From assembly GCA_963781885.1 (NCBI GenBank), contig CAWAHW010000004.1:195940-259939 (forward strand): a stretch of DNA of 64,000 bases, read 5' to 3'. Each line of letters starts with the position of its first letter. Position 1 is the stretch's first letter. The translations under genes were made by a program, and so were the position numbers. The notes under the pieces are model-generated. The model was not told the DNA's origin, did no database searches, and saw nothing but the letters and a program-made list of their open reading frames with translations. This DNA comes from an uncultured Spirochaetota bacterium. GTDB lineage: Bacteria; Spirochaetota; Spirochaetia; SZUA-6; Fen-1364. Below, piece after piece: positions 4,158 through 38,515 of the stretch.

Positions 4158-4287
4158 GCCCCTTGGATCGTTCATCCCGTGGAGTGATTTGCGGCCTATT
4201 GCAACCACGTAAAAAAGTGCTAAAAAACCAGGACCGCTTCCAGAAGCCCGCCTGCGTTTTTTAGACACCGTTCCATCATCCAGGAGG

Positions 4288-6455: not shown

Positions 6456-7479
6456 ATCCTTCCGCCTTGTAGCGGGGGAAGCTCACCGTCCACGATCTGC
6501 CCAGTAGCTTCCGCACGCCCCGCGAACCCTCGAGCCGGAACAGCAGAGGCTCCAGGACCGCCGCCTGCAGCCGTGAAAGATAAACGGCAAGTGCCAGGAA
6601 AAGAGCGATCCACGCGGGCACTGACAGGTAGCCGGGCAGCGCGACGAGCGCGGAAAGCCTGTTCAATCCGATTACGGAGACAACAATTATCGCCACGTTG
6701 ACCGTGAGGTGGACGACCGTGCGCGGGATGGACATCTGGATCGATTCCCGGGGACACAGGTTGATGCAGCGGTTGCACCCTTCGCACCTCACGCGCCACA
6801 AGGGCCTGCGCGCCTCCCCTTTTCCCGCCAAGACGATGGCCGATGCCGGGCAATCACGGGCGCAAATGCCACATGCGTTGCAGCGGGCATCCGCGGCGTA
6901 CAGGGCGCCGAGGAGGTAACGTCCGATCAGTGAATAGATCATCGAAACGGGCCACGAGAGGACCGCCATGAGCGTGCCGATGCGCGCACGTCCCGGCACG
7001 GAAGCCCCCGCTCCATCGGCGAGCGTCGCGGCGAATCGCGCGGCCTCCGCGTCACCTTCCCGCGTCATCGACAGGGCAAGGTCTGCGCTCGGTGAAGGCA
7101 CCACCTGGGTCCAGTTAAACGGGTAGGACACACCCGCCGCGGCGCCAACGCGGAAGCCTTTCCGTCTCAGGAGCCCGCGCGCCTGCCAGAGCGACGCGAA
7201 TGGAGCGCCGCCCCACGTCGCGAATGCCGCGGCATTCCTTCCTCTGCCCCGCACGCCGCGGAGCATTCTGCGCACGAGGGCGGGAATGCCGAAGCCGAGC
7301 ACGGGAAAGGCCAATACAAAAAGGTCGCCCGTAAAATCGCCTCGAAGGCTCCTATCCCCCCGTCGAAGCTCCACGAGCCTCACATGCCATCCCCTGCCGC
7401 CGAGAACGCCTGCGATTCCATGCGCCGCCCTCCACGTGTTCCCCGTGCCCGTTATGTACGCAACCGTTGCCTCTTTCAC
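6439..7479 (-). CDS. EFR1-family ferredoxin (flavodoxin-like domain + 2x[4Fe-4S] ferredoxin domain + C-terminal TM segment)
   Basis: N-terminal flavodoxin-like region (AYITGTGNT), CNACGICARDCP and CEGCNRCINLCP cluster motifs, hydrophobic C-terminus. Converges on the rSAM 3' end. Confidence 0.6.
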   Translation of the reverse strand: MKEATVAYITGTGNTWRAAHGIAGVLGGRGWHVRLVELRRGDRSLRGDFTGDLFVLAFPVLGFGIPALVRRMLRGVRGRGRNAAAFATWGGAPFASLWQARGLLRRKGFRVGAAAGVSYPFNWTQVVPSPSADLALSMTREGDAEAARFAATLADGAGASVPGRARIGTLMAVLSWPVSMIYSLIGRYLLGALYAADARCNACGICARDCPASAIVLAGKGEARRPLWRVRCEGCNRCINLCPRESIQMSIPRTVVHLTVNVAIIVVSVIGLNRLSALVALPGYLSVPAWIALFLALAVYLSRLQAAVLEPLLFRLEGSRGVRKLLGRSWTVSFPRYKAEGFKPGR

Positions 7480-8139
7480 GGTCTGTCCCCTTTTTCAAGC
7501 GATCCTCGTGCCACGGCCTTCTGCTGGAAGGTCCTTTCGAACACATACGCGCGGTACACGCGCGCGCTCCGCGTCATCTCTTCCGTGAGGGCGGCGTTCG
7601 CTTCGATTCCCAGCCCGCCGATCAGGCGCGCCCGTATCCCCATCTCGTGCTCCACGAGATCCCGCGCGCAGCGCGCGTAGAAGGTGAAGTCCCTGACCGA
7701 AAGCCCCCAGGAGAGGGATTGGGCAAACATCGATGCGATGGCCACGTCCTGCTCGTCGAAACTGCTGTCGTTTCGCGGGACAAGGAGTCCGGCCTCCACG
7801 AGCGAGCGGAGCGTCGCGGCGCTCAACCCGCTTGTTTGCTGGACCTGTTGCCGCGTATATCGCGTGCCCTCATCAAGCCCGAAAACCGTGTCGGACAGCG
7901 ACATCAGGGCCCTGATGTCCTCGGGACGAGCCGCGGACTGCATATACCCCTTTATCTCGGACAGCGTGAGCCGCTTCTTTTTCTGGAGCATCCGTATCAG
8001 CTGCACGCGCTCGACGCAGTTCTGGCGAGTAAGCGGCGACATTGCGCCCCGTGCGCACGGGCTCGGGCAGGAGCCCCTGGTCGACGTAGTGGAGAAGCGT
8101 CGATCGCGGCAGCCCGGTTGCCTTCATCAGCTCACGCAT
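7476..8139 (-). pseudogene. MerR-family transcriptional regulator, frameshifted near 8040-8060 (two overlapping ORFs 7873-8247 and 7476-8042)
   Basis: N-terminal MerR HTH (MRELMKATGLPRSTLLHYVDQGLLPEP) lies in one frame. The continuation (VERVQLIRMLQ...LTLSEIKGYM, second HTH-like GLSAATLRSLVEAGLL) lies in another. Stop overlaps the EFR1 start (ATGA). Confidence 0.5.
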
Positions 8140-8324
8140 CTTCAGGCCGGAGGGCCATTTTTTCGCAGGAGGGTGCATGCCGGAATGCCAATCGAAAAAC
8201 GATTTTTTGTCAAGTGCAACTCTACACTTTGCATTATGAAGGGGCACGAACGACCAGGTGGGCCGCCCACCAACTCGTCCGGTATTGACAGAATCAGGGC
8301 TTCGTGGTTATGTGAGGCTCACTT

Positions 8325-8397
8325 TCCCCTGTAGCTCAGTCGGTAGAGCGGGTGGCTGTTAACCACTAGGTCGCTGGTTCGAGTCCGGCCGGGGGAG
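8325..8397 (+). tRNA. tRNA-Asn (anticodon GTT)
   Basis: Cloverleaf drawn by hand: 7-bp acceptor TCCCCTG/CGGGGGA, D-arm TAGCTCAGTCGGTAGAGC, anticodon stem-loop GGTGG-CTGTTAA-CCACT, T-arm GCTGG-TTCGAGT-CCGGC. CCA is not encoded. Confidence 0.85.
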
Positions 8398-8403
8398 CGA
8401 AAG

Positions 8404-8437
8404 AAAGGGTCCAGCCACCGGCTGGGCCCTTTCTTTT
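8404..8437 (+). terminator. rho-independent terminator after tRNA-Asn
   Basis: GGGTCCAGCC/GGCTGGGCCC 10-bp stem (one G-U pair) followed by TTTCTTTT. Confidence 0.5.
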
Positions 8438-8454
8438 CCCTGGCCGGACTCGAA
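8438..8454. repeat. inverted 17-nt copy (16/17) of the tRNA-Asn 3' end (TTCGAGTCCGGCCgGGG)
   Basis: Reverse complement of 8438-8454 equals tRNA positions 8378-8394 with one mismatch. The surrounding sequence does not fold as a tRNA. Confidence 0.4.
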
Positions 8455-8691
8455 ACGAGCGAGCGCGGCGCGATCAGCGCCGAAAAGCGCGCAGGGACGC
8501 GCGCTTCGCGCGTTCGCTGCGTGGAAGCAATTTCTACTGGGCAGTTCCGCTCGAGTCTCAAGAATCCACTTGCTCCTTCTCCCGGTTGGCAGTAGGTTCC
8601 AAATCGCCGCGCATCGAAGTCGATGAACAGGTCACCATGCTCGTTTGCCGGCCGTCACGTTTCCTGCTATTCACTCGTGTCGGGGGGGCGT

Positions 8692-9580
8692 ATGCACGTT
8701 TCTCGAATCCATGGGGCCTTGAAGAGGGCCTCTACCTTTGCGGCGCCGGCAGGAGCCGGGGCCGCGCTCGTTCTCATGCTCGGCTTTGCGGTGACGGCCT
8801 TCGGGCAGACCGTACCGGCCCCGACTGGTGCCCACGCGCCCGTTGTGCCGGACATCGTGGAGTCACAGAACGAGCTCGCCGCCTGCTTGTCGGACAACCA
8901 GATCCAGGGAGCGGCGGATGGATCCCAGACCTTCAATGGCAAGGCCGGTCGGTCAATGGATCGCCCAGACGCAGGAAAAGTTCTCCACGCCGCTCGTGGC
9001 ATTCAACGCCTCCGTCTCGCCCGACGGACAAAGTCTTGCGGTGGAGCTCGTGGGGTGCCACCGGTCCCAGGACCAGCCGTTTCCCTTCACGATCGTCGCC
9101 GTTATTGGCCCGAACGGCCAGGTGAGCTACCTCCGCGATCAGGCGGGTACGCCATACTTCGACGGGTTCTTCACGGGCAACTCCGAAGGTGTCTACCACC
9201 TTTTCGGATGGCTTGCGAACAGCCAGACAGTCCTCCTCTTTGCGGAGCCTTACGATCTGGGCGCGGGAGGATCGTGCGAGCCGACCGACTGGATATCATA
9301 TGGCCGTGGCGGGCAGCCGGAAGCCGCCTTCCAGACCGTAAACGGCTTCACTCCCGCGAAGGGCAACGGAGTCCTTTTCTATGTTGCACCCGACGGTTGC
9401 AGCGGCGGGGAGAATGAGATTCACGAGGTACAGACTGCGACCGGCATCGACACGACAATCTACGCTGGCCCGCAGGACGTGGGCGTCGAGATAACCGGAA
9501 TTTCTGAGACGCCAGGCGGGTCCATCGTCATACGCTATCGCCCGTTTGGAGGCGACGAGCGAAAGCTCACTGTTCCCTGA
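8692..9580 (+). pseudogene. secreted hypothetical protein, frameshifted near 8945
   Basis: Signal peptide (MHVSRIHGALKRASTFAAPAGAGAALVLMLGFAVTAFG) in frame 1. The protein-like remainder (...VAFNASVSPDGQSLAVELVGC...) is in the 8828 frame. RBS GGGGGG before the ATG at 8692. Confidence 0.45.
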
Positions 9581-9718
9581 GCCGGCCCGCCTGGTAGAGC
9601 GACACGCGACGTCGCGCGCGCGGGCTGCGCCCGCCACTGAGCGCCGCCGCGGCGAGCCGTCCCGAAATGAAGCAAACCTTGACAGGCCTGGAATTGTGCC
9701 AGACCATAGAAAGCAGAC

Positions 9719-10138
9719 TTGGCGGAGGAAACAGGAACCATGCCGAACCCGAACGAGCTCATCGATGACCTTATTGCCAAAACCCCGGACTGGCGCGGCA
9801 AGACTTTTTCCAAGCTTCGAAAAATCATCCACGATGCCGACCCCGAGATAACCGAGGAATGGAAATGGGTCACTGCCAACCGCCCCGGCACGCCGGTATG
9901 GGAGCACAACGGGAGTGTCTGCCACATCAACATCCTGAAAGACAAGGTGAAGCTGACACTTCACGAAGGGGCGAGCCTCGACGACCCGAAAAAGCTCTTC
10001 AACAACGGGTTTGGGGGCAACAAACTGCGGGCAATCGATATCAGTGAGGGCGACAAGCTCAACGCAGGCGCTCTGAAGGCGCTCATCCGTGCCGGTGTTG
10101 AATATAACCTCTCCAAGGTGAAACCCAAGCGCAAGTAA
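9719..10138 (+). CDS. DUF1801 (YdhG-like) domain protein
   Basis: IHDADPEITEEWKWVTANRPGTPVWEHNG matches the DUF1801 core. About 55% GC, clearly lower than flanking genes. Confidence 0.6.
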   Translation: MAEETGTMPNPNELIDDLIAKTPDWRGKTFSKLRKIIHDADPEITEEWKWVTANRPGTPVWEHNGSVCHINILKDKVKLTLHEGASLDDPKKLFNNGFGGNKLRAIDISEGDKLNAGALKALIRAGVEYNLSKVKPKRK

Positions 10139-10170
10139 GGAGGCCGCCGGGAGGGCGGCCCCGCAGCAAC

Positions 10171-11090
10171 GTGTTGAATATCCAAATGGAGCTGATCATG
10201 TGCCGATTCCGCCGCATCTCCCAGGTGCTCTCCGTCGCAGCACCCCTGGCGGCTTTCTTCGGGGTGGTTATAGCCGTCAATCCCGTCATGGCGGCCGCCG
10301 CGCCAGACAGCGTCCTGATACAGCAGGCAGCGGGGTCAACGATCTTCGACAACGGGACCGGCTTCATGTGGGGAACGACCGGCAGCTCGTTCGCAATCGC
10401 GCGCACCCAGAACAATGGAAAGACGTGGAGCAAGGACGACCTCGACGGCGTCTCCGATAAACCTGGGCGCCCTTGCAACAGCGTCAGGCGGCCGTCTCAC
10501 CACTGTCTCCGTGCACTTCGCCGATCCCGACCATGGCTGGGTTGCCTGGTCCACCGAGGATTCGGTTTTCCATATCGCGAGCACCACGGACGGCGGGGCA
10601 AGCTGGCGGGACGCGCTGTCGCTGCAGACCGACGCCGTGTTCGACCGCGATATCTTCCCCGGGCCTGGCCGCGCCTGCCTCCTGGCGGAAATGCCGGAGG
10701 GAATGATGCACACCACGATGGTGACGATAGCCACGGACGACAACGGCGTCACGTGGACTCCCAGCGTGCTCTCCCACGGCGATGGTGTGCACGATTGGAC
10801 GTTCCGCAGCGCGACAGACGGCTTCCTTTCGGTCGACTACCCCTCCGGGGTGAGCATCCTTTTCTACCAAACGACGGACGGCGGCAAAAGCTGGAAGAGT
10901 GTCGATCTTCCCCTTCCGCCCGATGTCACGACCGAAGGGGTCTGGGGCACATCCCCCGGGCAAGCCCGTTTTTTCGGGCCCGCAACAACTGACCGGCATG
11001 ATGACGGTGGAGGTCGATCTTCCGAAAGGCGAGGCGAACGTGGTGTACCGCACCACCGACGGCGGGAATACGTGGACCTACTCGAAATAG
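10171..11090 (+). pseudogene. secreted BNR/Asp-box repeat protein (Ycf48/sialidase-like beta-propeller), two frameshifts (about 10455 and about 10950)
   Basis: Signal peptide, then Asp-box repeats TTDGGASW, TDDNGVTW, TTDGGKSW, TTDGGNTW spread over three reading frames (ORFs 10171, 10415, 10899). Confidence 0.5.
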
Positions 11091-11098
11091 GGGAGACT

Positions 11099-11175
11099 AT
11101 TGTTATATAACAAGCTATATATGGCTTGTTATATAATGCTTTATTAATGAATTGTTAATCTCCCGTTTATGGCGC
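11099..11175. repeat. AT-rich palindromic element: perfect 14-bp palindrome TTGTTATATAACAA plus two further TTGTTA motifs, bracketed by GGGAGA/TCTCCC
   Basis: Read directly from the sequence. Sits in the 415-bp intergenic region upstream of the porin gene. A second perfect palindrome ATGCCATGGCAT is at about 11364. Confidence 0.4.
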
Positions 11176-11505
11176 CCAACATACCGTTCATATAAGCTGC
11201 TCAACTAACGGAAAGGCGGCTTGATTGTCCGCGTGCAGTGGCATTCCAAGCGAGGGTCATGGGGTCGGGGTATCTTCATTCACGTCCTCCCTTTCCGTTG
11301 GAGTGATTAGGTTGCCGCGGGATTCACCCTCGCTGCAGCTCCATCCGTGACCCTCACTTGATATGCCATGGCATGGATCGTCGTCAAAGCCACATGAAGA
11401 CGGCGCTCGCCAAATACTTGGTCACAACACGACGGCCGGTGGCTGTCGTGTCTAGAATGAGGAGCCGTTGGCTCCAGATTCGACGTAGTACAAGGGAGGA
11501 AGGGA

Positions 11506-12609
11506 ATGAAAAGAACTCTGTTGTTTGGGCTTATGGCTCTGGCTCTCCTCGCCGTTGCGCTCCCCGCAATGGCAGCTCCATCGACTCTCGGGGTTGCGGG
11601 CGAAGTGACGTACGGCGTCATCGGCACCGGCACGACCGCAGCAGATGGTTTCGGCAATGCGCAAATGACTCTTACCGCAACTGTCGATCCCAACAACATG
11701 GCATCGCTGCAGCTTTACGCAAACACCCTGACTGCCACTGAGAACGGCTCCACCATGGGCATCCCTGTTGTCAACGATTTCTACTGGCAGTCGAATATCG
11801 GCGGCATACTCGGTCTGGACGCCAAGGTTGTCGACCCGGTCCTCTCGGTGGGATATGGCGTTTACGATCTTCCTGACTTCAACCTGACCCAGTCCGGCCC
11901 TGAAGGCATCGCGGCACTCGGCGTCGACAGCGGCAATGCGGACGGCATGTTCGGTGGTGAAATCGGACATGGATTTGGCCTGGCTGCTTTGAACACCAGC
12001 ATCCTGGGGATGTTCAACGTCGTCCTGGCAGCATCTGGAACGGCTTTCACAACGGCAACGCCCGAAGCTCTGGCTGGCGTTTATGGCACGGTCGGACCTG
12101 TCAGCTTCGAAGCTGGGTGGGCCGCAAAGGGAACCACAGCTGGTTACATTCCCATCGGCGTCAAGGCAAATCTTGCGATGGGGGACATCGGTCTTGCAGC
12201 CATGGGCAGCTACGTTGTCAATCTGAACGCGGGCGGCGTGTCCAACTGGGCAGGCGGCCTCCAGGCAAGCTACAAGAGCAGCTACACGGTTGACTTTGCC
12301 TTGGTTTCCACCGAACCCAAGTGGGCCACCGCCGGGATCATCGAAGGCACGGGAGATGTCATTCTTACCTTCGCACCGAACTTCGGAGTCATCGGCACGG
12401 CATGGCTGAACCTCGCTACTAACGCAGCGGCGCTGTTCGATACCTTCGAAGCTTCCGTTTGGTACTCGTTCGGCCCTGCCAAGATTCGTGTTGGCTACCT
12501 CTACACGACCGCGACGGGGAACACACTCGGAAATCCTGACCTGAACGCACCGGCGGCTAATGGCGCCAATGGCGGCGGCGTATTCGCTACTGCCGACATG
12601 TCCTTCTAG
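11506..12609 (+). CDS. outer-membrane beta-barrel (porin-like) protein
   Basis: Signal peptide MKRTLLFGLMALALLAVALPAMA, Gly/Ala/Thr-rich alternating pattern, C-terminal Phe (..ADMSF). [13 protein letters not shown]. Confidence 0.6.
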   Translation: MKRTLLFGLMALALLAVALPAMAAPSTLGVAGEVTYGVIGTGTTAADGFGNAQMTLTATVDPNNMASLQLYANTLTATENGSTMGIPVVNDFYWQSNIGGILGLDAKVVDPVLSVGYGVYDLPDFNLTQSGPEGIAALGVDSGNADGMFGGEIGHGFGLAALNTSILGMFNVVLAASGTAFTTATPEALAGVYGTVGPVSFEAGWAAKGTTAGYIPIGVKANLAMGDIGLAAMGSYVVNLNAGGVSNWAGGLQASYKSSYTVDFALVSTEPKWATAGIIEGTGDVILTFAPNFGVIGTAWLNLATNAAALFDTFEASVWYSFGPAKIRVGYLYTTATGNTLGNPDLNAPAANGANGGGVFATADMSF

Positions 12610-12667: not shown

Positions 12668-12753
12668 GGGCTCACCAGCTTTGTGGCGATGAAGCTGCTC
12701 ACAATGCTTGACAGGCCCTTCCCTCCGATTCACTATTCCGTGAAGCGCCCCCG

Positions 12754-14523
12754 ATGAAACACAACACATCATCGCCTCTGGTCATTGCAGTCTTCGTTAC
12801 GGCGCTGGCAATGTTGGCGGGGGCGACTTTCATCAACACCCGGATTACCCTGCGTCACATAGACGTCGACAGGCTCTATGTCGCGAGCCGCGCCCGACTC
12901 ACTTCGATCCAGGAGCTTAAATCGATCGTGCTCACGGCCGTGATCGCGGAAAGAAACTTCATCCTCAGCGGGAACGATCAGGATCTCCAGCCGTACGAAC
13001 AGGCAAAGGCGGATGCGCGGGTGCAGGTTGAAAAAATCGACCCCCTGATCGACGATGCTTCCCCTCAACAGTCGGACCTCGACGAATTACGAAGCCTTTT
13101 TCAGGAAAAATTCGCCGCCCTTGACGAGATGATCGCCATGCGGCGGGCTCATGGGATCGGGCGCGAGGTGACGAGCATCCTCGTGGACAGAAGCATACCG
13201 CTTCTCACCAAGATCGATGCCGCGGAAGGCATCATGCAGAACGCTGAGGCAGCAACGCTCCAGCAACTGGAGAATCGTTCGTCGGACAGCGTTTATCTGT
13301 CCCTTGCCGTCTCATCCGGCGGCAGCGCCCTTGCTTTGCTGCTCCTTGTACTCGCCTTCGTCATGCTGGAACGGGAAATCGTGCGGCGACGCGTCACCGA
13401 AGCGGGCCTTGTCGAGGCAAAACAGGTCGCCGATGCCGCGAATCGGGCGAAAAGCGAATTCCTGGCCAATATGAGTCACGAGATCAGGACCCCCATGAAC
13501 GCGATCTTGGGTTTTGCCGAGCTCTTGGGGGAATCGGCTTCGGCGGGCATCAAGGACAAGAGCAACATCGACGGGATCAAAACGGCGGGAAAAAGCCTCA
13601 TGATCATCATCAACGACATCCTGGATCTCTCCAAGATCGAGGCGGGCCGCCTGGATATTCGGCTCGAGCCGGTGAGCCTCCCGAGCCTGCTGCGCGACGT
13701 GGAGCGGATCTTCTCCGTGGCGGCGGCACGAAAGAAGCTCGATTTCCGCCTTACAATCGCCCGTGGGATACCCGATGTCCTCCGCCTCGACGAGGTGAGA
13801 TTGCGCCAGGTGCTCTTCAATCTGCTGGGGAATGCCATGAAATTCACGGACAAGGGTTCGGTCGGCGTCGCCGTCACAATGACGGGTCAGGTCTTACCGG
13901 CCAACCTCATCGACCTGGAAATCGATGTGATCGATACGGGCATCGGCATCGCCGCCGCCGACCAAGAGGCGATCTTCGAGCCTTTTCGCCAGGCGTTCCA
14001 GGGAGAGCGCCGATTCGGCGGAACGGGTCTCGGGCTTGCGATCAGCCGCAGGCTCGTGGCGGCGATGGGTGGATCGCTCTCGGTGCGGAGCGAGATCGGT
14101 CGAGGCTCCCTGTTCCGCGTCCGTCTTCCGGGGGTACAGGCGGCCGTGGGAATCGAGCCCGGCGCGGGAGGCGGCGGTCCCGCTCAAATCCCCCCTGAGA
14201 GCGCGATCCCTGTTCCCTCCGTTGCCCCCCTCATTCTCCTTTTCATCGAGCAGACGAGGAAAGCCGGTCCGCTCCGCGATGCCATCGGTTCCGCCATGCG
14301 CGAGGAAATTCTTCCTGAGCACAAGAGGCTGAAGATCACCCTCGAGGTCAAGGCCGTCCGCGCATGGTGCCTCCGGCTGCAAGAGCTCTCTGGCTCATGG
14401 GGATGCCCTGCTCTGGCGGATTTCGCCAGCACGCTCGAATCGTACGCCGACAGTTATCAGATCAACGAGATCGTCGGGTGTCTTCGAGAATTCAACGCCG
14501 TCCTCGAGGAGTTCACGCCATGA
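12754..14523 (+). CDS. sensor histidine kinase with periplasmic CHASE3-like domain
   Basis: N-terminal TM, CHASE3-like region, second TM, HisKA (EFLANMSHEIRTPMN), HATPase (GTGLGLAI). Promoter-like TTGACAGGCCC upstream. Confidence 0.8.
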   Translation: MKHNTSSPLVIAVFVTALAMLAGATFINTRITLRHIDVDRLYVASRARLTSIQELKSIVLTAVIAERNFILSGNDQDLQPYEQAKADARVQVEKIDPLIDDASPQQSDLDELRSLFQEKFAALDEMIAMRRAHGIGREVTSILVDRSIPLLTKIDAAEGIMQNAEAATLQQLENRSSDSVYLSLAVSSGGSALALLLLVLAFVMLEREIVRRRVTEAGLVEAKQVADAANRAKSEFLANMSHEIRTPMNAILGFAELLGESASAGIKDKSNIDGIKTAGKSLMIIINDILDLSKIEAGRLDIRLEPVSLPSLLRDVERIFSVAAARKKLDFRLTIARGIPDVLRLDEVRLRQVLFNLLGNAMKFTDKGSVGVAVTMTGQVLPANLIDLEIDVIDTGIGIAAADQEAIFEPFRQAFQGERRFGGTGLGLAISRRLVAAMGGSLSVRSEIGRGSLFRVRLPGVQAAVGIEPGAGGGGPAQIPPESAIPVPSVAPLILLFIEQTRKAGPLRDAIGSAMREEILPEHKRLKITLEVKAVRAWCLRLQELSGSWGCPALADFASTLESYADSYQINEIVGCLREFNAVLEEFTP

Positions 14524-15668
14524 TCGAGGCCGCCACAGAGGTCTTCCCCCACGCCACGGAATTCCGCGTCCTCATCGTGGATGACGTGCCCGACAACCTC
14601 AAGATCATCGGTGGCATCCTCGATGGGAAGGGAGTCGATCTCAGCTTCGCGACCAGCGGCGCCCAGGCCTTGGAGAGCGCCCAGGTCACCCATCCCGACC
14701 TTGTCCTCCTCGACGTGGCGATGCCCGAGATGGACGGCTACGAAGTGGCGCGGAGGTTCAAGACGACCGACGGCCTCTCCGACATCGCGGTGATTTTCAT
14801 CACGGCGCGCGCCCATTCTCAGGATGTTCTGGACGGTTTCCGCGCCGGCGCGGCCGACTACATCACAAAACCGTTCAACGCGGCCGAGCTTCTGGCGCGC
14901 GTCTTTACACACCTCGAGCTCAAGAAATCGCGGGATACCATTCGTCACCAGAACGAGGGCCTGCGCGCATCCAACGCCGCCAAGGACAGGCTCCTTTCCA
15001 TCATTGCCCATGATTTGAAAAACCCATTGCATGGGCTCATCGGCATTTCCGAGCTGCTGCTCGATATGGGTGACGGCATGGATGGCGCCTTGCGGAAGGG
15101 ACACCTGACTTCCCTGAACGCAACGGCCCGACAAATGGCAAAATCCCTTCGTGAGCTTCTGGATTGGGCCAAAGTGCAGAGCGGCGCCATTGAATGGAAA
15201 CCGGAAGAGTTCATGCTGGCATTCATCGTTGAAGAATCGATCCTCCTCATGCAGAGCGCGGCAACCGCAAAGGAGGTCGCCGTGACGAACCGCATCGCGA
15301 GCGAGGAAAAGGTATTCGCTGATCCAATCATGATCCTCACGGTTGTCCGCAATCTCCTGCAAAACGCGATCAAGTATTCCAGACGCGGTGGCGAAGTCAC
15401 CATTTCCGCTGAGAATGTCGTTGATGACAGCGTTCGGATCATGGTCGGCGACACGGGTATAGGCATGCATCCCGCCCTCGTCACCTCCCTCCTCAAGAAT
15501 GATTCGCTTGCGTCGCGACCGGGGACCGAAGGCGAGCTGGGGACTGGACTCGGACTCAAGTTCTGTTGGGAGTTCCTATCGACGCATAGAACCACCCTCC
15601 AAGTGAAAAGCGAAGAGGGAAAAGGGACGACGTTCTCATTCGTGCTGCCTCGCAGGAAAAAAGAATAG
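14520..15668 (+). CDS. hybrid response regulator-histidine kinase (REC-HisKA-HATPase)
   Basis: REC domain (LIVDDVPDNL...DVAMPEMDGY...ADYITKPF), then HisKA (IIAHDLKNPL) and HATPase (DTGIGM, GTGLGL). ATG overlaps the upstream TGA (ATGA). The track ORF start at 14364 is an overextension. Confidence 0.8.
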   Translation: MIEAATEVFPHATEFRVLIVDDVPDNLKIIGGILDGKGVDLSFATSGAQALESAQVTHPDLVLLDVAMPEMDGYEVARRFKTTDGLSDIAVIFITARAHSQDVLDGFRAGAADYITKPFNAAELLARVFTHLELKKSRDTIRHQNEGLRASNAAKDRLLSIIAHDLKNPLHGLIGISELLLDMGDGMDGALRKGHLTSLNATARQMAKSLRELLDWAKVQSGAIEWKPEEFMLAFIVEESILLMQSAATAKEVAVTNRIASEEKVFADPIMILTVVRNLLQNAIKYSRRGGEVTISAENVVDDSVRIMVGDTGIGMHPALVTSLLKNDSLASRPGTEGELGTGLGLKFCWEFLSTHRTTLQVKSEEGKGTTFSFVLPRRKKE

Positions 15669-15713
15669 ATTCGGATCCGCCTTCGCGCGGCTGCCGGTTC
15701 AGCGCCCTGCTGT

Positions 15714-16832
15714 CTACTCCACCTCGTCGGGCCTGACCTCCTCCCCGGTGGCCGCGGACTGAAGAGCCGCCAGGGTGAACTGGAGGACTGCCTTGCCTGC
15801 GGGGCCGTCCAGCTTGGGTTTCCCGCGGCCATGAAGCGCATCGATGAGATTGTGGGTCGCGGCAATGAACCCATCGTGCCATTCCTCTCCCTCAACGGGT
15901 ATGGCCTTTGTCTCTCCACCCTTGAACAGCATGAGCGCGGGAAGGTCAACGGTCCTTGCCGTGTAGCGATTGATGAAGATGATGCCCTTTTCACCGATCA
16001 CTTCGATGCGATCGTCGTCCGTGTAGTACTGGGAATTGATGCACATCTTCGGCGTGTACTCCACGTCCAGGAATCCATAGCGACGCGCTGCCTTGTACTG
16101 GAACATGATCGCGGCCGGCGCATCGATCCGCACGGTGCCGGCCGTGTCCTTGACCGCGGTTCCATCGATCCAGGCAAAGACCTTTTCCACGGGCCCTCCC
16201 AGGAAGTACCCCACGGAGAAAAGGTGGTAGCCGTGATCGAACACCAGCGGCCCGCCGCCGCACTGCTTCTTGTTGAAGCGCCAGAGCCATGCGCTGAGAG
16301 GCACTTTCCATCCCGTGTTTTCCGTTCCCGTATTCACGTGCATCCGCACGGCGCGGACTTCTCCGATCTCCCCGGCGTCGATCATCTCCTTTGCGCGGAC
16401 CGCGGGGGCGTAGCAGGCGAAGGTCTCGAAGACCCGGAGCACGACTCCGGCCTTGCGTGCCGCGTCGATCATCTCATCCGCTTCCGCGGCGGACAGCGCC
16501 ATGGGCTTCTGCACGGAGACGTGCTTGCCCGCCCGGCAGGCCGCCACGCTCATGGAGCAGTGCAGGTGGTGCGGTGTCAGCAGCTCCACCACGTCCACCT
16601 CCGGGTCCCGCAGCACCTGTTCGTAGTCGGTGTAGACCCTGTCCACGCCCCATGCCTTTGCCTTTTCCGCGGCATGTGCCCGGCTCGTGTCGCACACCGC
16701 CATTATTTTCGCGTCCTCCCTCCCCTGGTAACCGAGCCGATGCAGGTCCGAGATCCTTCCACACCCGACAATGGCAACGCCCAGTGGCTTGGTTCGCGTC
16801 GAAAGCCTGGAAACTCTGACTGCAGTGGCCAT
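15714..16832 (-). CDS. Gfo/Idh/MocA-family NAD(P)-dependent oxidoreductase
   Basis: Rossmann motif VAIVGCGRIS, EKP-like motif VSVQKPMA, family-typical length of 372 aa. Confidence 0.85.
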   Translation of the reverse strand: MATAVRVSRLSTRTKPLGVAIVGCGRISDLHRLGYQGREDAKIMAVCDTSRAHAAEKAKAWGVDRVYTDYEQVLRDPEVDVVELLTPHHLHCSMSVAACRAGKHVSVQKPMALSAAEADEMIDAARKAGVVLRVFETFACYAPAVRAKEMIDAGEIGEVRAVRMHVNTGTENTGWKVPLSAWLWRFNKKQCGGGPLVFDHGYHLFSVGYFLGGPVEKVFAWIDGTAVKDTAGTVRIDAPAAIMFQYKAARRYGFLDVEYTPKMCINSQYYTDDDRIEVIGEKGIIFINRYTARTVDLPALMLFKGGETKAIPVEGEEWHDGFIAATHNLIDALHGRGKPKLDGPAGKAVLQFTLAALQSAATGEEVRPDEVE

Positions 16833-16835
16833 GGT

Positions 16836-17468
16836 CTACTCCTTTGAAATGGATCGAACTGAAGACTCCAGTCGCGGGTCCGCGCCAAGAGAGGCGCGAA
16901 GCACGGGAAAAAAAGCGGGGAAAGTAAGCGCCGGACGGACGACCTCCGCGGGAAGGGACGTCACGATGTCGGCCATGGCGCGGTGGGTGATTCCCGAGAC
17001 TTCCTTCAACAATGCTCTGCCGCGGCGCTGCGGCTCTGCACGGCCGGCGGGATAACCCGCACCGGCATCTGCCGTGAAAAGGTTGTCGAAGATGAGCCTC
17101 AGGTTGATGTCGCCTGCCCAGCCATATCCCTGATTCAGGGCAAGAGAGACGCAATTGCCCGCGTTGATGCGGGAAAAAAGCCACGCATCCAGGGGAGAGA
17201 GCAAATGGCCGCAGCAGACGCCGGGGTATTGCATGACTGAGTTCATATAGCCGATCCCGGTTCCGCAGCCGCCGATCACGAAGTCCACGGCGCCCAGATG
17301 CAGGAGCAGGGCGGACATCAGGCCCGTGTGGACATAGAGAAGCTCGGGCGACTGGCCGCTCTGCGTGTTCCCAAGGTTCAGGACCTCCAGCCCCCGGCCT
17401 TCCAGCGCCTTCACAATGTCCGCGTTCCTGTCGGCAGCGCTCGTTTCGTTGATGACGGCGACTCTCAT
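16836..17468 (-). CDS. RpiB/LacA/LacB-family sugar-phosphate isomerase
   Basis: FVIGGCGTGIGYMNSVMQYPGVCCGHL matches the RpiB active-site region (catalytic Cys). Confidence 0.7.
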   Translation of the reverse strand: MRVAVINETSAADRNADIVKALEGRGLEVLNLGNTQSGQSPELLYVHTGLMSALLLHLGAVDFVIGGCGTGIGYMNSVMQYPGVCCGHLLSPLDAWLFSRINAGNCVSLALNQGYGWAGDINLRLIFDNLFTADAGAGYPAGRAEPQRRGRALLKEVSGITHRAMADIVTSLPAEVVRPALTFPAFFPVLRASLGADPRLESSVRSISKE

Positions 17469-19262: not shown

Positions 19263-21111
19263 CTAGAGTCCTATCTCATGCCGGAGCGCCTGGACCGAGT
19301 CGCACCATGGACCCACATTCCAGCGCCCCCAGACTCCCATGCCGCCCAGCGGGTCTGCGCCGAAGTACACGGGAACGTGGACGAGCGAGAGTCCCGGGTG
19401 CCTGCCCGCTTCCACCAGCGCCGCGCGAAGGGCTTCTGGTGTCCGGCCGCCGTCCACCGCGCGCACGCCGGGAACGGACCGTGCCCAGGCAAGGTAGTCC
19501 ACCTTCAGCGTGTTCCAGGTCGCAAATCCCCTGCCGTACTGATCGTTCTGCAGACCGGTGATGGCACCCATCCTGCCGTTGTCCAGCAGGACGATGCAGC
19601 CGCGCGCGCCATGCTCCGCGCCGTCGATCAGGACCTGGGGATTCATCGTGAAGGAGCCGTCACCGGTAAAAGCCACAGCGGAGAAGGGCTTGTCCGCCGC
19701 CGCGGTTGCAAGAAGCGCGGACACGGCGAATCCCATGTAGGATGCCCCGGCCTCCGTCAGCGTGACGCCCGGGCTCTTCATCCTCCACCACCTGAAAGCC
19801 GTTGGCCTGCACGTCCCCCGCGTCGAAGAAACACACGGCACCACGCTCCCGGGCCCACGATGCCGCGATCCCGATGACAGCAGGCTGGGTGAGCACGGGC
19901 CCGGCCCAGTACTCGTCCTTCAGCACGGGGTTGCTGAACCTCTGTCTCTTGAAGTCCTGCCATTCGGCCTTCTTCTGTGCGCAGGAGTCCGCCCAGCCCC
20001 CGCGTGCAAAGCCTCCGCCAAGCGCCTGGTTGAGCCTCCCCAGCGTGCGCTCCGCGTCCCCGACGAGCGCGAGCGAGTGGCGGTAATGCGTAGCGTCCTC
20101 GAAATCCGCGTTGATATTGATCACGCGCTTCACGTTCGGATAGCCCGTGCGGGAGCAGTCTGACTGGCAGACGGCGCGCGTGCCCACGGCCACCAGAAGG
20201 TCCGCGTTCTCCATGGCGTGGTTCCCGCAAAGGGAGCCCTTTGAGCCGCCCACGCCCATGCACTGCGGGTGCGAATAGGGAATGCAGCCGGAGGCGATGG
20301 GCGTGAAGACCAGGACTCCACCCGACAACTCCAGCAGCTTCTCCAGTTGGGCGCGCGCCGTCCTGCCGCCTCCGCCCACCTTGACCAGCACCCGTTGGGC
20401 ATCGCGGATCCACCCCGCGGCCGTCTCGTAGTCGCCGTTGGCGGCGGCCAAGGCGGTTGCGCCTGTCGCGGAAGGAATCTCCGGAAGCTCGGCGGTGTTG
20501 AACCCACGGATCAGCGTGGACTGGGTGTTCAAGGGAAGAAGGAGGTAGAACGGAGTGGGCCGATACGGATGGTCCACGGCCGCCGCGCCTCGCTGAAGCG
20601 CAGTGGACAGGGCAAGAGGAGTATGGAGGCTGTACGCCCTGCCCATTGTCGCGGCCAGCCGCAGGAAAAGTCCCTGCTCGGGCCGGGGGACCTGCTGCAT
20701 GTTATAGCCTTCGTCCTCCGTGGTTTCGTCCCCCATGAGGTACCAGACGCCAACTCCGTCCGATGCCGGGGCGATCGAAGCTGCCAGGGCCTGCAGCGCG
20801 CCGGGACCGATGGAGGTGACAACCGCGGCCTTCTCTCCCGTTGCCCACCGCAAGGCCATGGCGGCGTGGGAGGCTTCGATTTCATTACGGACCGCGAAGA
20901 CCCTGGCCAGACCTGCTTCCTGGTAGACCCGAAGGACTTCGCCGATCTCCGTGGAGCCATGCCCGAAGACCGCGAAGTACTTCCTCACTCCCAGTCGGAG
21001 CAGGCCGAGCACGAGCGCCTCGGACAGGGTGACGTCCACCCGTGCCGGCAGCGTCCCACCCTGTGCCAGAGATCGCGCGCGTGCCAGTCGTTCTGCTCCT
21101 GCATCGTGCAT
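19263..21111 (-). pseudogene. thiamine-pyrophosphate-dependent enzyme (acetolactate synthase / IolD / sulfoacetaldehyde acetyltransferase superfamily), single frameshift near 19780-19800
   Basis: Pyr and middle domains in ORF 19660-21111. TPP-binding C-terminal domain (GASYMGFAV...TGDGSF...LDNG) in ORF 19263-19844, other frame. The junction maps to a CCC/CC homopolymer (gaagagcccggg). Confidence 0.6.
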
Positions 21112-24925: not shown

Positions 24926-26578
24926 CAGCAATTCTAACTATGGGTCTGTACGGGACGCAATGCCGTAGATTACCGGGAACGCCCGTCTAGTATTCGCTAT
25001 GAGTTGCATGCCGTACACTTGCCCTCAGAATGTCAGGAGGGGAGACGTTTGAGGCCCTGATGTCCCTTCTCATGGGATGCGTCGAGAGGTTTCCAGATCG
25101 ACGAACGGGCAAGAATACGCAGTTCTCCCTTGAAGATGTGACGCGCGGGGCTTTCGGAGTGTTCTTCTGTCAGAGTCCCTCCTTTCTGGCCTTCCAAGAG
25201 TTGATGCAGCAACAGCAGGGTAAGAACAACGCACGGAGCCTTTTTGGGGTCCAGCAGATTCCCTCGGACAACCAGATCAGAGCCTTGTTGGACCCCGTGG
25301 ATCCCTCACTGTTGAATGCAGTCTACGAGAAGTGTTTTGATCTGATGCAGCAGCGCGGGCTTATGCAACCGATGAGGTCCTTTGCCAACTCGCTTCTGGT
25401 GGCCTTGGACGGCACAGGGTATTTCCTGTCGGAATCCATCCACTGTCCCTCCTGCATGGTAAGCAATCACCGTGACGGACGAGTCACCTACACACACTCC
25501 GTGCTGCTTCCCGCGGTGGTCAGTCCCCAACAGGCCCATGTGGTGGCGCTGCAGCCGGAGTTTCTCAGTCCCCAGGATGGCCATGATCGGCAGGACTGCG
25601 AGTTTCAAGCGGCCCTGCGCTGGATCGAGCGCTACGCTGCGCGATTGAGCCCCTTAGGAGTGACGCTGCTGGGAGATGACCTGTATTCGCGAACCCCCAT
25701 CATCACTCGCGCCGTGCAGCAGGAGCTGGATTTCATCTTTGTTGCCAAGCCGGTCATGCACAAGCACTTGTTTGAGGAGATTGAGGGCTTGGAGAAACTG
25801 GGCGGGGTGCACACCCTGCAACGCAGCGCCTGGACAGGTAAGGATCACCGTCACTACCACTACCGCTGGATCAACGATGTCAGCCTGACCGCCGAGAAGG
25901 ATAGCCCGGTGGTCTCATGGGTGGAATTGCAGATTCTCGACGACAAGGGCAAGGTCACTTATCGCAACTGCTGGGTCACCAGCCACCCCATCAGCGAACA
26001 GACGGTGGTGGAGGTGGTGAACGCGGGTCGATGCCGCTGGAAGGTTGAGAACGAGAACTTCAACACACTGAAGACGAAGGGATACCACTTCGAGCACAAT
26101 TTCGGCCATGGCCAGCAGTATCTGTCGCAGACACTGCTATCGCTGAATGTGATTGCCTTTCTTTTTCACACCCTTTTACAGCTCATGGATAGCCGCTGTG
26201 CCCTGCTTCGCTCGACACTGCCGCGTCGGGATACCTTTTTTCAACACGTTGCCACACTGACCCAGTATCTGTGCTTTGACAGTTGGGTGGCTCTGATGCA
26301 GTTCATGGTGAATGGGCTGCACCTGCCTGACCCAGACGGATAGTTCACCGATCCTGCCTGCCTTCATAACACCCCTACAGAACCACCCTCCCTCCTGCGT
26401 GGCCAACCTTGGACGGGTGCTTGCTGTAAGTCCCCTTCCGCGCCTCACAACTCCGGCGGACCTCCATTCAAACTTTCTCCTCCACCAAAGTCCTAATCCC
26501 GGATTCCCACCTGGGCGCATATACGCCATAGATTCCCTCATGCCAACCAAACGTCTTTGGCCATAATGCGAATTGCTG
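24926..26578 (+). mobile_element. insertion sequence (1653 bp) with imperfect 20-bp terminal inverted repeats (CAGCAATTCtaacTATGGgt / CAGCAATTCgcatTATGGcc), IS4/ISNCY-like
   Basis: IRs begin with 5'-CA. 14/20 match. Single transposase ORF inside. Flanked by a 9-bp direct repeat. Local GC is lower than the surroundings. Confidence 0.6.
25030..26343 (+). CDS. DDE transposase (IS4/ISNCY-like family)
   Basis: 437 aa. The motif RWKVENENFNTLKTKGYHFEHNFGHG is typical of this transposase group. The family is assigned from memory and was not searched. Confidence 0.75.
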   Translation: MSGGETFEALMSLLMGCVERFPDRRTGKNTQFSLEDVTRGAFGVFFCQSPSFLAFQELMQQQQGKNNARSLFGVQQIPSDNQIRALLDPVDPSLLNAVYEKCFDLMQQRGLMQPMRSFANSLLVALDGTGYFLSESIHCPSCMVSNHRDGRVTYTHSVLLPAVVSPQQAHVVALQPEFLSPQDGHDRQDCEFQAALRWIERYAARLSPLGVTLLGDDLYSRTPIITRAVQQELDFIFVAKPVMHKHLFEEIEGLEKLGGVHTLQRSAWTGKDHRHYHYRWINDVSLTAEKDSPVVSWVELQILDDKGKVTYRNCWVTSHPISEQTVVEVVNAGRCRWKVENENFNTLKTKGYHFEHNFGHGQQYLSQTLLSLNVIAFLFHTLLQLMDSRCALLRSTLPRRDTFFQHVATLTQYLCFDSWVALMQFMVNGLHLPDPDG

Positions 26579-38403: not shown

Positions 38404-38515
38404 CTCTCTGATCACCCTCGGTTTCCTCCAACTTCCCCAAATGTACATTTAAGGAAGCTGGGCCTGGACAAGCCCCACGACAGTATTCTCTCCCTGGTTC
38501 GGTGCAGCTGCCTCC

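Follow-up and report, generated by a model that had tools for sequence, protein, structure and literature searches.

The described systems that come closest to the locus reported here are of three kinds. Islands linked to tRNA genes are exemplified by the P4-type integrase islands and by the high-pathogenicity island found at asn tRNA genes of Yersinia and Escherichia coli. Palindromic repeats of the miniature inverted-repeat transposable element (MITE) or repetitive extragenic palindromic (REP) type include the Correia elements and REPINs. Lastly, cis-mobilizable elements (CIMEs) and their tandem accretion at attachment (att) sites are terms applied to ICESt1-type elements of Streptococcus (PMC5704250, PMC7563491). 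The locus itself lies in a 64-kb stretch of DNA (the window, by which the whole stretch analysed is meant) from an uncultivated member of the Spirochaetia with a high content of guanine and cytosine (GC). It consists of a tRNA-Asn gene, a palindromic module built from copies of that gene's 3′ end, and a few kilobases of genes that appear to be frameshifted.

An earlier note, made from the letters alone, had taken the segment at 8.4-11.1 kb (the islet, in what follows) for a decayed integrated element or a rearrangement scar beside tRNA-Asn. The account favoured here, to which a rough probability of 0.55 can be attached, is that tRNA-Asn borders a variable zone, that the module was inherited with the locus and is truncated in the window, and that the frameshifts are more likely artefacts than old pseudogenes. 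The islet is a variable region of the ordinary, tRNA-linked kind and does not form a separate foreign island of low GC. Labels of the form L0xx denote contigs of relatives, and those of the form P0xxx denote proteins in the collection that was searched.

The tRNA-Asn gene and its palindromic module

Sequence similarity of MetK places the window among uncultivated Spirochaetia, with named matches that are 84-88% identical. Closer MetK matches, with 94-96% identity, stand only on contigs of 1.5-3.2 kb. Relatives found by way of this protein (L054-L061) have in common the gene order Mfd-...-FtsH-TrpS-PFK-MetK-radical SAM(-EFR1 ferredoxin)-tRNA-Asn, and the tRNA gene stands at the equivalent position in L055-L060, L064, L065 and L067. 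Variations on this order occur just ahead of the tRNA gene. For example, the MerR-family regulator is absent in L056, where only 62 nt separate the EFR1 gene from the tRNA gene; EFR1 is absent in L064 and appears absent in L067; and a DDE transposase lies upstream of tRNA-Asn in L065. In L054, there is no tRNA gene at the locus, and a transposase follows the radical-SAM gene. A scan of genome contigs with the EFR1 ferredoxin gave distant matches only (35% identity or less) and no gain in synteny.

Beyond the tRNA gene, the content differs in every lineage. Homology between the window and L056-L060 runs on past the tRNA to position 8504, which is where the window's variable DNA starts (at about 8504). 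From there, L056-L060 carry a DUF433 gene, small open reading frames (ORFs), a distant DUF1801 gene (~52% identical) and an ABC ATPase, while an ABC permease gene follows the tRNA in L064. Integrases were seen in L055 only, where an integrase-bearing element, at 13555-16887, directly follows tRNA-Asn. Besides two tyrosine-integrase genes (a fragment and one for a 391-aa protein), the genes after the tRNA comprise an HTH_17 gene, a helicase fragment and a PLD nuclease. The T-stem of the L055 tRNA (GGCGG/CCGTC) departs from that of its relatives, which would follow from a 3′ half contributed by the element, and two TTGGTATCAG repeats stand just past the terminator. Direct repeats of the tRNA 3′ end also occur 190-900 nt downstream of the gene in relatives. 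The proposal in the earlier note that the tRNA 3′ end acts as an integration target is thus well founded for this lineage, on the strength of the L055 integrases and these repeats. The comparison with relatives that it called for also came out as it had anticipated, since the islet genes are absent from the same position in L055, L056-L060 and L064. These data support the view that tRNA-Asn is a hot spot of both recombination and integration in this lineage.

Directly behind the terminator hairpin that follows tRNA-Asn, the same note had recorded an inverted copy of the tRNA T-arm and acceptor 3′ half, and this copy is confirmed, with 16 of 17 positions matching. An exact 13-mer, TTCGAGTCCGGCC, occurs at 8378 on the forward strand and at 8442 on the reverse strand, and the arms can be extended to 26 nt at 85% identity because the flanks of the terminator pair as well. 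Only 0.22 occurrences of the 13-mer, with one mismatch allowed, are expected by chance anywhere in the 64-kb window, and three matches to it were reached in none of 100 shuffles; chance therefore does not explain an exact copy so close (within 60 nt) to its source. Nor does an error of assembly, since the inverted copy recurs throughout independent assemblies from different samples, short-read and long-read alike, which answers the concern that it might be missing from raw reads. In L059, the copy is perfect over 21 of 21 nt (9534-9554 on the forward strand and 9617-9637 on the reverse), while in L056 and L060, it is shortened to GGACTCGAAAC. Shared as it is with relatives whose MetK is 88% identical, the copy is inherited and older than this genome. 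It is a genuine relic of rearrangement and not a fresh scar.

The inverted copy proved to be one end of a larger unit. A metagenome scan with the 21-mer that lies right after it recovered ten further contigs with the same module, which measures ~135-145 nt and comprises GCTCCCCCGGCCGGACTCG, then ~95-120 nt of GC-rich hairpins, and then CGAGTCCGGCCGGGGGAGC. Its left arm is an inverted copy, and its right arm a direct copy, of the last 19 nt of tRNA-Asn, so that the module ends in inverted repeats, with arms of 19-21 nt in L059, L063 and L066; it has no coding capacity. L064 (two tandem copies), L066, L067 and L071 retain the right arm, CGAGTCCGGCCGGGGGAGC, whole, and in L056, L059, L060, L062, L063 and L070 it has decayed. 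JGI samples of peat and soil were the source of L062-L071. Direct target repeats accordingly stand on both sides of the module in L064, L066, L067 and L071, and the right one is missing in the window. Behind tRNA-Asn in L064 (992-1470 on the reverse strand) stand two tandem units of terminator plus module, both of which finish in the 19-nt direct repeat of the tRNA end. Moreover, the module is always preceded by a terminator hairpin, which itself comes after a tRNA-like end, ...GGGGGAGC. This hairpin holds its position in relatives with unrelated sequence from lineage to lineage, and in L066, a second terminator follows the module.

In several contigs, the module keeps company with fragments of mobile elements or of the tRNA itself. 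HicAB and serine-recombinase fragments adjoin it in L063 and L070. A 40-nt 3′ fragment of tRNA-Asn precedes it in L062, and one of 48 nt lies 850 nt past it in L069, where RelE-like and XRE-like ORFs (assigned by eye) fill the space between. Another repeat, X, of 72 nt, was noticed in the same contigs. In L066 (1-424), it forms a nested palindrome of X, terminator, module, terminator and inverted X, with the inverted copy exact. X ends in tRNA-like ...AGGGGGAGC and overlaps short conserved ORFs on both strands (..GSKLVQ* and LDELRTYCYE..). It also occurs in L062, L063 (twice) and L069, and directly upstream of P0004, a homolog of the islet's BNR protein, where it was seen through N-terminal read-through; X is absent from the window.

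The module has a strongly conserved fold. An RNAalifold consensus over eight sequences has 44 pairs, with 96% of cells paired and five compensatory pairs, and its covariation score was reached by none of 500 shuffles, while controls slid along the alignment gave 30-43% pairing. G-U pairs are tolerated on the tRNA strand, and the window at 8325-8570 has a folding z-score of -8.4. No Rfam 15 family corresponds to the module (the matches were to tRNA, along with sub-threshold microRNA-type hairpins), and neither of two module patterns was found in viral contigs. The module is thus an undescribed, conserved and covarying unit that is built from copies of a tRNA 3′ end and has no entry in Rfam.

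In the window, only the left half survives. With nhmmer, positions 2-72 of the 143 in the profile match 8435-8503, and a covariance model (R1) scores the window at 50.9 bits, as compared with 125-162 bits for ten of eleven full-length copies in relatives; the second tandem copy of L064 scores 79.9 bits. A half copy is also found in L069. The window's 64 kb hold one copy, and there is none in L048, L049, L051, L054, L055, L072 and L073 (~100 kb).

Genes, composition and frameshifts of the variable region

Three genes occupy the islet between the module and the AT-rich block (Table 1), and the description of the first and last of them as a frameshifted secreted protein and a BNR-repeat gene with two frameshifts is accurate. 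Gene A is read in frame 1 from 8692 and in frame 2 from ~8945 to 9580, and its intact homologs (P0228-P0233) read ...FNGKP(V/I)xQWIA... over the junction. It encodes a signal peptide and a 210-aa, all-beta C-terminal domain with no Pfam match. A function for this domain was sought in a structural model and set aside, as the all-beta model has a confidence (pLDDT) of 65 and Foldseek returned only weak, propeller-like matches (E > 0.001). The DUF1801 gene is intact, and its homolog (84%) neighbours a BNR homolog (65%) in L049/L050, in another arrangement. The YCF48/BNR-like gene is read in three successive frames, with an extra C in TCT[C]CGAT at 10454/10455 and an extra G in CCCCC[G]GG at 10958-10960. 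An intact homolog, P0001 of L048 (288 aa; 81% amino-acid and 86% nucleotide identity), aligns with two 1-nt gaps. This family has 17 close members of 231-333 aa, none closer than 81% to the window copy. The L048 homolog lies in a different context, beside an IS66 fragment; the other contexts all differ too, and no tRNA was seen near any BNR homolog. The islet genes belong to the lineage and are not foreign.

The segment at 8325-11100 has a GC fraction of 0.622, as against 0.623 for the window, which puts it at the 47th percentile of equal-sized windows, and the flanking DNA lies at 0.62-0.64. The claim of a lower-GC islet is thus incorrect, as is the ~66% given for the surroundings of the DUF1801 gene, although the value of about 55% for the gene itself is right: the single low value is its 0.554 (5th percentile of 400-nt windows). 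The k-mer profile suggested as a check turned out host-like: 78% of windows stand further from the window average in tetranucleotide usage. Deviation is strongest at 24.4-27.8 kb, which holds an insertion sequence (IS)-type transposase, and at 37.8-40.8 kb, which adjoins a toxin-antitoxin/HNH region at 35.7-38.5 kb.

The frameshifts themselves are of one kind, and they are not restricted to the islet. All five frame changes in the window are +1 insertions in G/C runs of 1-3 bases, and the corrected frames contain no stop codons. The MerR profile is divided between two ORFs (positions 2-41 in one and 43-68 in the other), and the TPP-dependent enzyme has TPP_enzyme_N and TPP_enzyme_M in one ORF and TPP_enzyme_C in another. 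By its letters, then, the islet is pseudogene-rich, with three frameshifts in two genes; as a property specific to the islet this does not hold, since the MerR and TPP-enzyme genes are hit alike. In the BNR protein, unique departures from invariant columns number 7, as compared with 1-8 in intact members. The window's own proteins in the collection (P0018, P0107, P0227 and P0237) come from one contig of 808,799 bp, and two of these public gene calls, P0018 and P0227, are fragments of the frameshifted genes. Because that length is typical of long-read data, the source is presumably a long-read assembly.

Sibling contigs with Flye-style names, L054 (ERZ25039480 contig_19404) and L055 (contig_23651), have frameshifts in trpS, ftsH, the radical-SAM gene and a conserved hypothetical gene (at 8172 and 11328-11433 in L054, and at 6585 and 4205 in L055). 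Relative to intact copies, each lesion is a one-base deletion, and three of the four lie where two or three identical bases stand in a run. Since genes that are essential should be unbroken, assemblies of this kind do carry such errors; the sibling lesions also suggest that consensus indel errors are frequent in these public metagenome-assembled genomes. Several other explanations and candidates were discarded. Overlapping ORF pairs that resemble frameshifts (SBBP, BNR_2, GT4/Fer4, ABC/PIN and luciferase/OYE) are separate genes, and RpiB is intact. A methylation motif was considered as the cause, because CCCGGG is the site of two lesions; these are, however, the only ones hit among the window's 40 CCCGGG sites. 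A relative-rate test on BNR (36 versus 16 changes) was dropped, as P0001 is closer to P0002 than to the window copy and the polarisation is biased.

At the far end of the islet, an AT-rich palindromic block does exist at 11100-11139, as described earlier, although it does not mark the right end of an element. The 400 nt upstream of 66%-identical homologs (L072-L074) of the downstream outer-membrane-protein (OMP) gene align along 11091-11505 of the window, with TGTTA..TGTTATA(A/T)AA boxes, TTAATCTCCC and several strongly conserved leader blocks in common. The downstream neighbours of these homologs differ, and a block conserved despite differing neighbours is therefore a regulatory region of the OMP gene and not an element boundary. 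The palindrome is enlarged in the window. The OMP family has only 21 members, and the named ones are all from Spirochaetia.

The ~350-nt leader of the OMP gene (11140-11505) is of interest in its own right, with long, near-invariant blocks such as GGTCACAACACGACGGCCGGTGGCTG and TAGAATGAGGAGCCGTTGGCTCCAGATTCGAC. Corresponding leader regions lie at 1-688 in L072, 1-533 in L073 and 1-437 in L074, contigs that end a few hundred nucleotides upstream of the OMP gene. Such constancy, next to proteins with only 66% identity, suggests that the leader may be a structured 5′ untranslated region.

Other features of the window were noted along the way. A 16-nt repeat with CTTGACAGGCC occurs at 9673-9688 and 12702-12717, ~50-65 nt upstream of the DUF1801 gene and of a CHASE3 histidine kinase gene, and the two copies are probably the -35 regions of similar promoters. 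The DDE transposase-like ORF (437 aa) at 25030-26343 lies in the most compositionally deviant part of the window, and homologs with 40-45% amino-acid identity follow the radical-SAM gene in L054 and precede tRNA-Asn in L065. The cluster at 35689-38448 holds a PIN toxin with an AbrB-type antitoxin, an HNH_2 endonuclease (36641-37726), and a RelE-like fragment with a Phd-like antitoxin. At 33287-33550, a YCII-family gene matches only positions 34-92 of the 95 in its profile, with no N-terminus in any upstream frame, and looks like a truncated remnant. Finally, a long-loop SAM-II riboswitch lies upstream of metK, at 4173-4233 (45.5 bits, with a gathering score of 44), and another in L054, at 9883-9943 (51.5 bits); this riboswitch family is mostly known from Proteobacteria and Bacteroidetes.

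Table 1. Features in and around the variable region behind tRNA-Asn (positions in the window)
Feature	Position	Strand	Basis or remark
MerR-family regulator, split by one extra base at 8024/8025	7476-8247	-	Pfam profile split
tRNA-Asn(GTT)	8325-8398	+	ARAGORN; Rfam tRNA 67.4 bits; anchor of the locus
Terminator hairpin, A-tract before and T-tract after (bidirectional type)	8400-8436	+	Inverted repeat I7, 17 nt at 94%
Truncated/degenerate module copy	8434-8528	+	Left half only (to ~8503); right arm gone
Inverted copy of tRNA T-arm/acceptor 3′ half (module left arm)	8438-8454	-	16/17 versus 8378-8394
Gene A, secreted protein, one extra G at 8943/8944 (AAG[G]CCGG)	8692-9580	+	Frames and homologs
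DUF1801 gene, intact	9740-10138	+	Pfam PF08818, 1.3e-18; GC 0.554
YCF48/BNR-like secreted protein, two frameshifts	10198-11090	+	Alignment to intact L048 gene
Conserved upstream region, promoter/operator-like palindrome and long leader	11091-11505	+	Alignment with L072-L074
AT-rich palindrome	11100-11139		Within conserved OMP upstream region; unique in window
Spirochaetia-specific OMP-like gene, intact	11506-12609	+	Signal peptide, C-terminal F
TPP-dependent enzyme, one extra base in CCCGGG at 19768-19773	19263-21111	-	Frameshift outside islet

Weighing the explanations

A history that would accommodate these observations begins with tRNA-Asn as a conserved anchor and the DNA past it as a hypervariable zone, moulded by deletion and by site-specific integration. 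The terminator hairpin would have been inherited together with the GC-rich element of ~140 nt, whose ends are inverted copies of the last 19-21 nt of the tRNA, and whose right end, in relatives, forms an att-like repeat of the tRNA 3′ end in direct orientation. Recombination with the tRNA end may have kept the module uniform. In the window, a later deletion or rearrangement would have removed the right half of the module, and the same event would have joined what was left to accessory genes typical of the lineage, namely those for the beta-rich secreted protein, DUF1801 and the BNR/YCF48-like protein, with the OMP gene beyond them. The letter-level features in the earlier note thus stand, apart from the lower GC, and of its interpretation, a tRNA-linked hot spot with a rearrangement relic can be retained, while a delimited, decayed element of 2.7 kb cannot.

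That narrower alternative, in which 8.4-11.1 kb would be an element inserted at the 3′ end of tRNA-Asn, bounded by the AT-rich palindrome and with its genes rotting, does have some appeal. The segment adjoins a tRNA gene whose 3′ end serves integration in relatives, its content is absent here from every relative examined, and it brings together three frameshifts in two genes and a gene of lower GC. Nevertheless, it is improbable. Scanned against Pfam and NCBIfam, the larger ORFs from 6.4 to 23.6 kb yielded no integrase, and the islet holds no mobility gene; the 23-nt tRNA end has no direct copy in the window with up to three mismatches; GC and tetranucleotides match the window background; the supposed boundary is the OMP gene's own upstream region; the inverted copy predates the islet; like lesions occur outside it; and searches of plasmids, phages and viral contigs gave no similarity beyond a 79-nt stretch of DUF1801 that matched among plasmids and phages. 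A much larger island, from tRNA-Asn to ~37.2 kb, is conceivable too, and the direct att copy that the earlier note had asked for downstream might then be a worn attR, the exact 13-nt T-loop copy, GTTCGAGTCCGGC, at 37230-37242, which lies in direct orientation between PIN/AbrB-like and RelE/Phd-like modules and an HNH gene, with deviant k-mers at 37.8-40.8 kb and the IS-type transposase at 25.0-26.3 kb. This reading is very unlikely indeed. The 13-mer, the only candidate copy in the window, has a BLAST E-value of 0.05 and, with one mismatch, a chance expectation of 0.22 per window; its similarity ends at 13 nt, it sits inside an uninterrupted 361-aa HNH ORF, and no integrase lies anywhere between it and the tRNA. 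It is treated here as a chance match.

From the 19-nt direct repeat ~190 nt downstream, the tandem duplication and the mobile-element company, we infer that the module is a gene-less, att-bounded, CIME-like remnant of elements that targeted tRNA-Asn, inherited with the locus. Against this origin, no integrase is tied to the module's 19-nt arms, the L055 element has no module in the 7.5 kb that can be seen, and a GC-rich, hairpin-rich and covarying core would be unusual for att arms and is just as compatible with a structured RNA or a REP/MITE-like element. It is rather unlikely, all the same, that the module is a functional structured RNA, or an RNA-level terminator or insulator beside tRNA-Asn, of which the window has a degenerate copy. 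The compensatory pairs and near-complete pairing, the tolerance of G-U pairs on the tRNA strand, the folding z-score and the constant position after a terminator hairpin that follows a tRNA-like 3′ end all speak for it; however, Rfam has no such family, the copies sit past a terminator, half copies persist in the window and L069, and DNA palindromes such as REPs retain complementarity as well. The perfect tRNA-end copies in both orientations, the tandem duplication, and the recombinase, toxin-antitoxin and att fragments point instead to events at the level of DNA. A broader proposal, which spans both natures and is offered tentatively, as one that may well prove wrong, is that the module represents an undescribed family of miniature, non-autonomous integrative elements or structured RNAs, with inverted tRNA-Asn ends (19-21 nt) as termini and nested palindromes with bidirectional terminators, which marks cassette-like arrays of small cargo (toxin-antitoxin, BNR-type) after tRNA-Asn in soil and peat Spirochaetia.

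As for the frameshifts, the odds lean slightly towards long-read consensus errors, perhaps concentrated where a strain-variable region has low coverage. The damage is confined to indels, whereas several real indels would be expected to come with many substitutions, some of them nonsense. Even so, four of the five lesions fall within 3 kb around the tRNA, with the fifth 9 kb further on, while the adjoining 7.4 kb of upstream core genes have none, and none was recognised in the rest of the window, where genes with family matches are full length. Such clustering fits relaxed selection on accessory genes and not a uniform error process. In addition, the window's lesions are all insertions and the sibling lesions all deletions, and a sequencing project shared by the window and the sibling assemblies is unproven. 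The reverse possibility, that slippage insertions recently inactivated a set of accessory genes (MerR, gene A, BNR and the TPP enzyme), is therefore a serious contender with a probability somewhat short of even. It draws on the same clustering in non-core genes and on the single sign of the lesions, and accessory genes beside integration hot spots commonly decay. Yet the genes show no stops, no larger deletions and, in BNR, no excess loss of conserved residues; runs of 1-3 bases are poor substrates for slippage; and related long-read assemblies have frameshifts even in trpS and ftsH.

Comparison with known systems

The lesions can be set beside the single-base indels of Nanopore assemblies. 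A Nanopore study of soil metagenome-assembled genomes, which used a Flye plus Medaka pipeline, attached a caveat on indels to its data (PMC12313526). Like homopolymer errors of that type, the window's lesions are single-base indels in short homopolymers that split ORFs and leave no other damage, and, in the sibling 'contig_N' assemblies, such indels hit essential genes. The window differs in that all five are insertions and locally clustered, and its link to such a project is unproven (PMC12313526). The "pseudogenes" of the window are a warning about indel errors in genomes assembled from long-read metagenomes.

With tRNA-linked islands, the locus shares the use of a tRNA 3′ end as attachment site and a gene content that varies between relatives after the tRNA. 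The likeness is closest in the relatives, where L055 has integrases right after tRNA-Asn and direct repeats of the tRNA 3′ end occur. The window itself departs from the pattern, with no integrase, no direct repeat and no compositional deviation, and its copy of the tRNA end is inverted and part of an older, shared module. As a locus of this ordinary kind, the window changes little by itself; the module is the part that deserves attention.

Set against MITE- and REP-type repeats, the module differs in that the 64-kb window holds one copy and the seven other loci of the same lineage hold none, in its constant tie to tRNA-Asn-like ends, which supply its terminal repeats, and in that no target-site duplication was seen. 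What it has in common with them is a size of ~140 nt, perfect 19-nt terminal inverted repeats, no coding content, stable hairpins and an association with terminators.

In comparison with CIMEs of the ICESt1 type, the module is unusual for its extra, inverted copy of the core, which produces a palindrome, and for its GC-rich, covarying hairpin interior. The resemblance is that of a short, gene-less segment lying between attL-like and attR-like target repeats, and it extends to the tandem copies, with two modules in L064 and the second terminator after the module in L066. If the module is an RNA, it would constitute a new family. If it is a substrate for recombination, it would show how, in an uncultivated lineage, gene-less, att-bounded units seed arrays at a tRNA hot spot and organise them.

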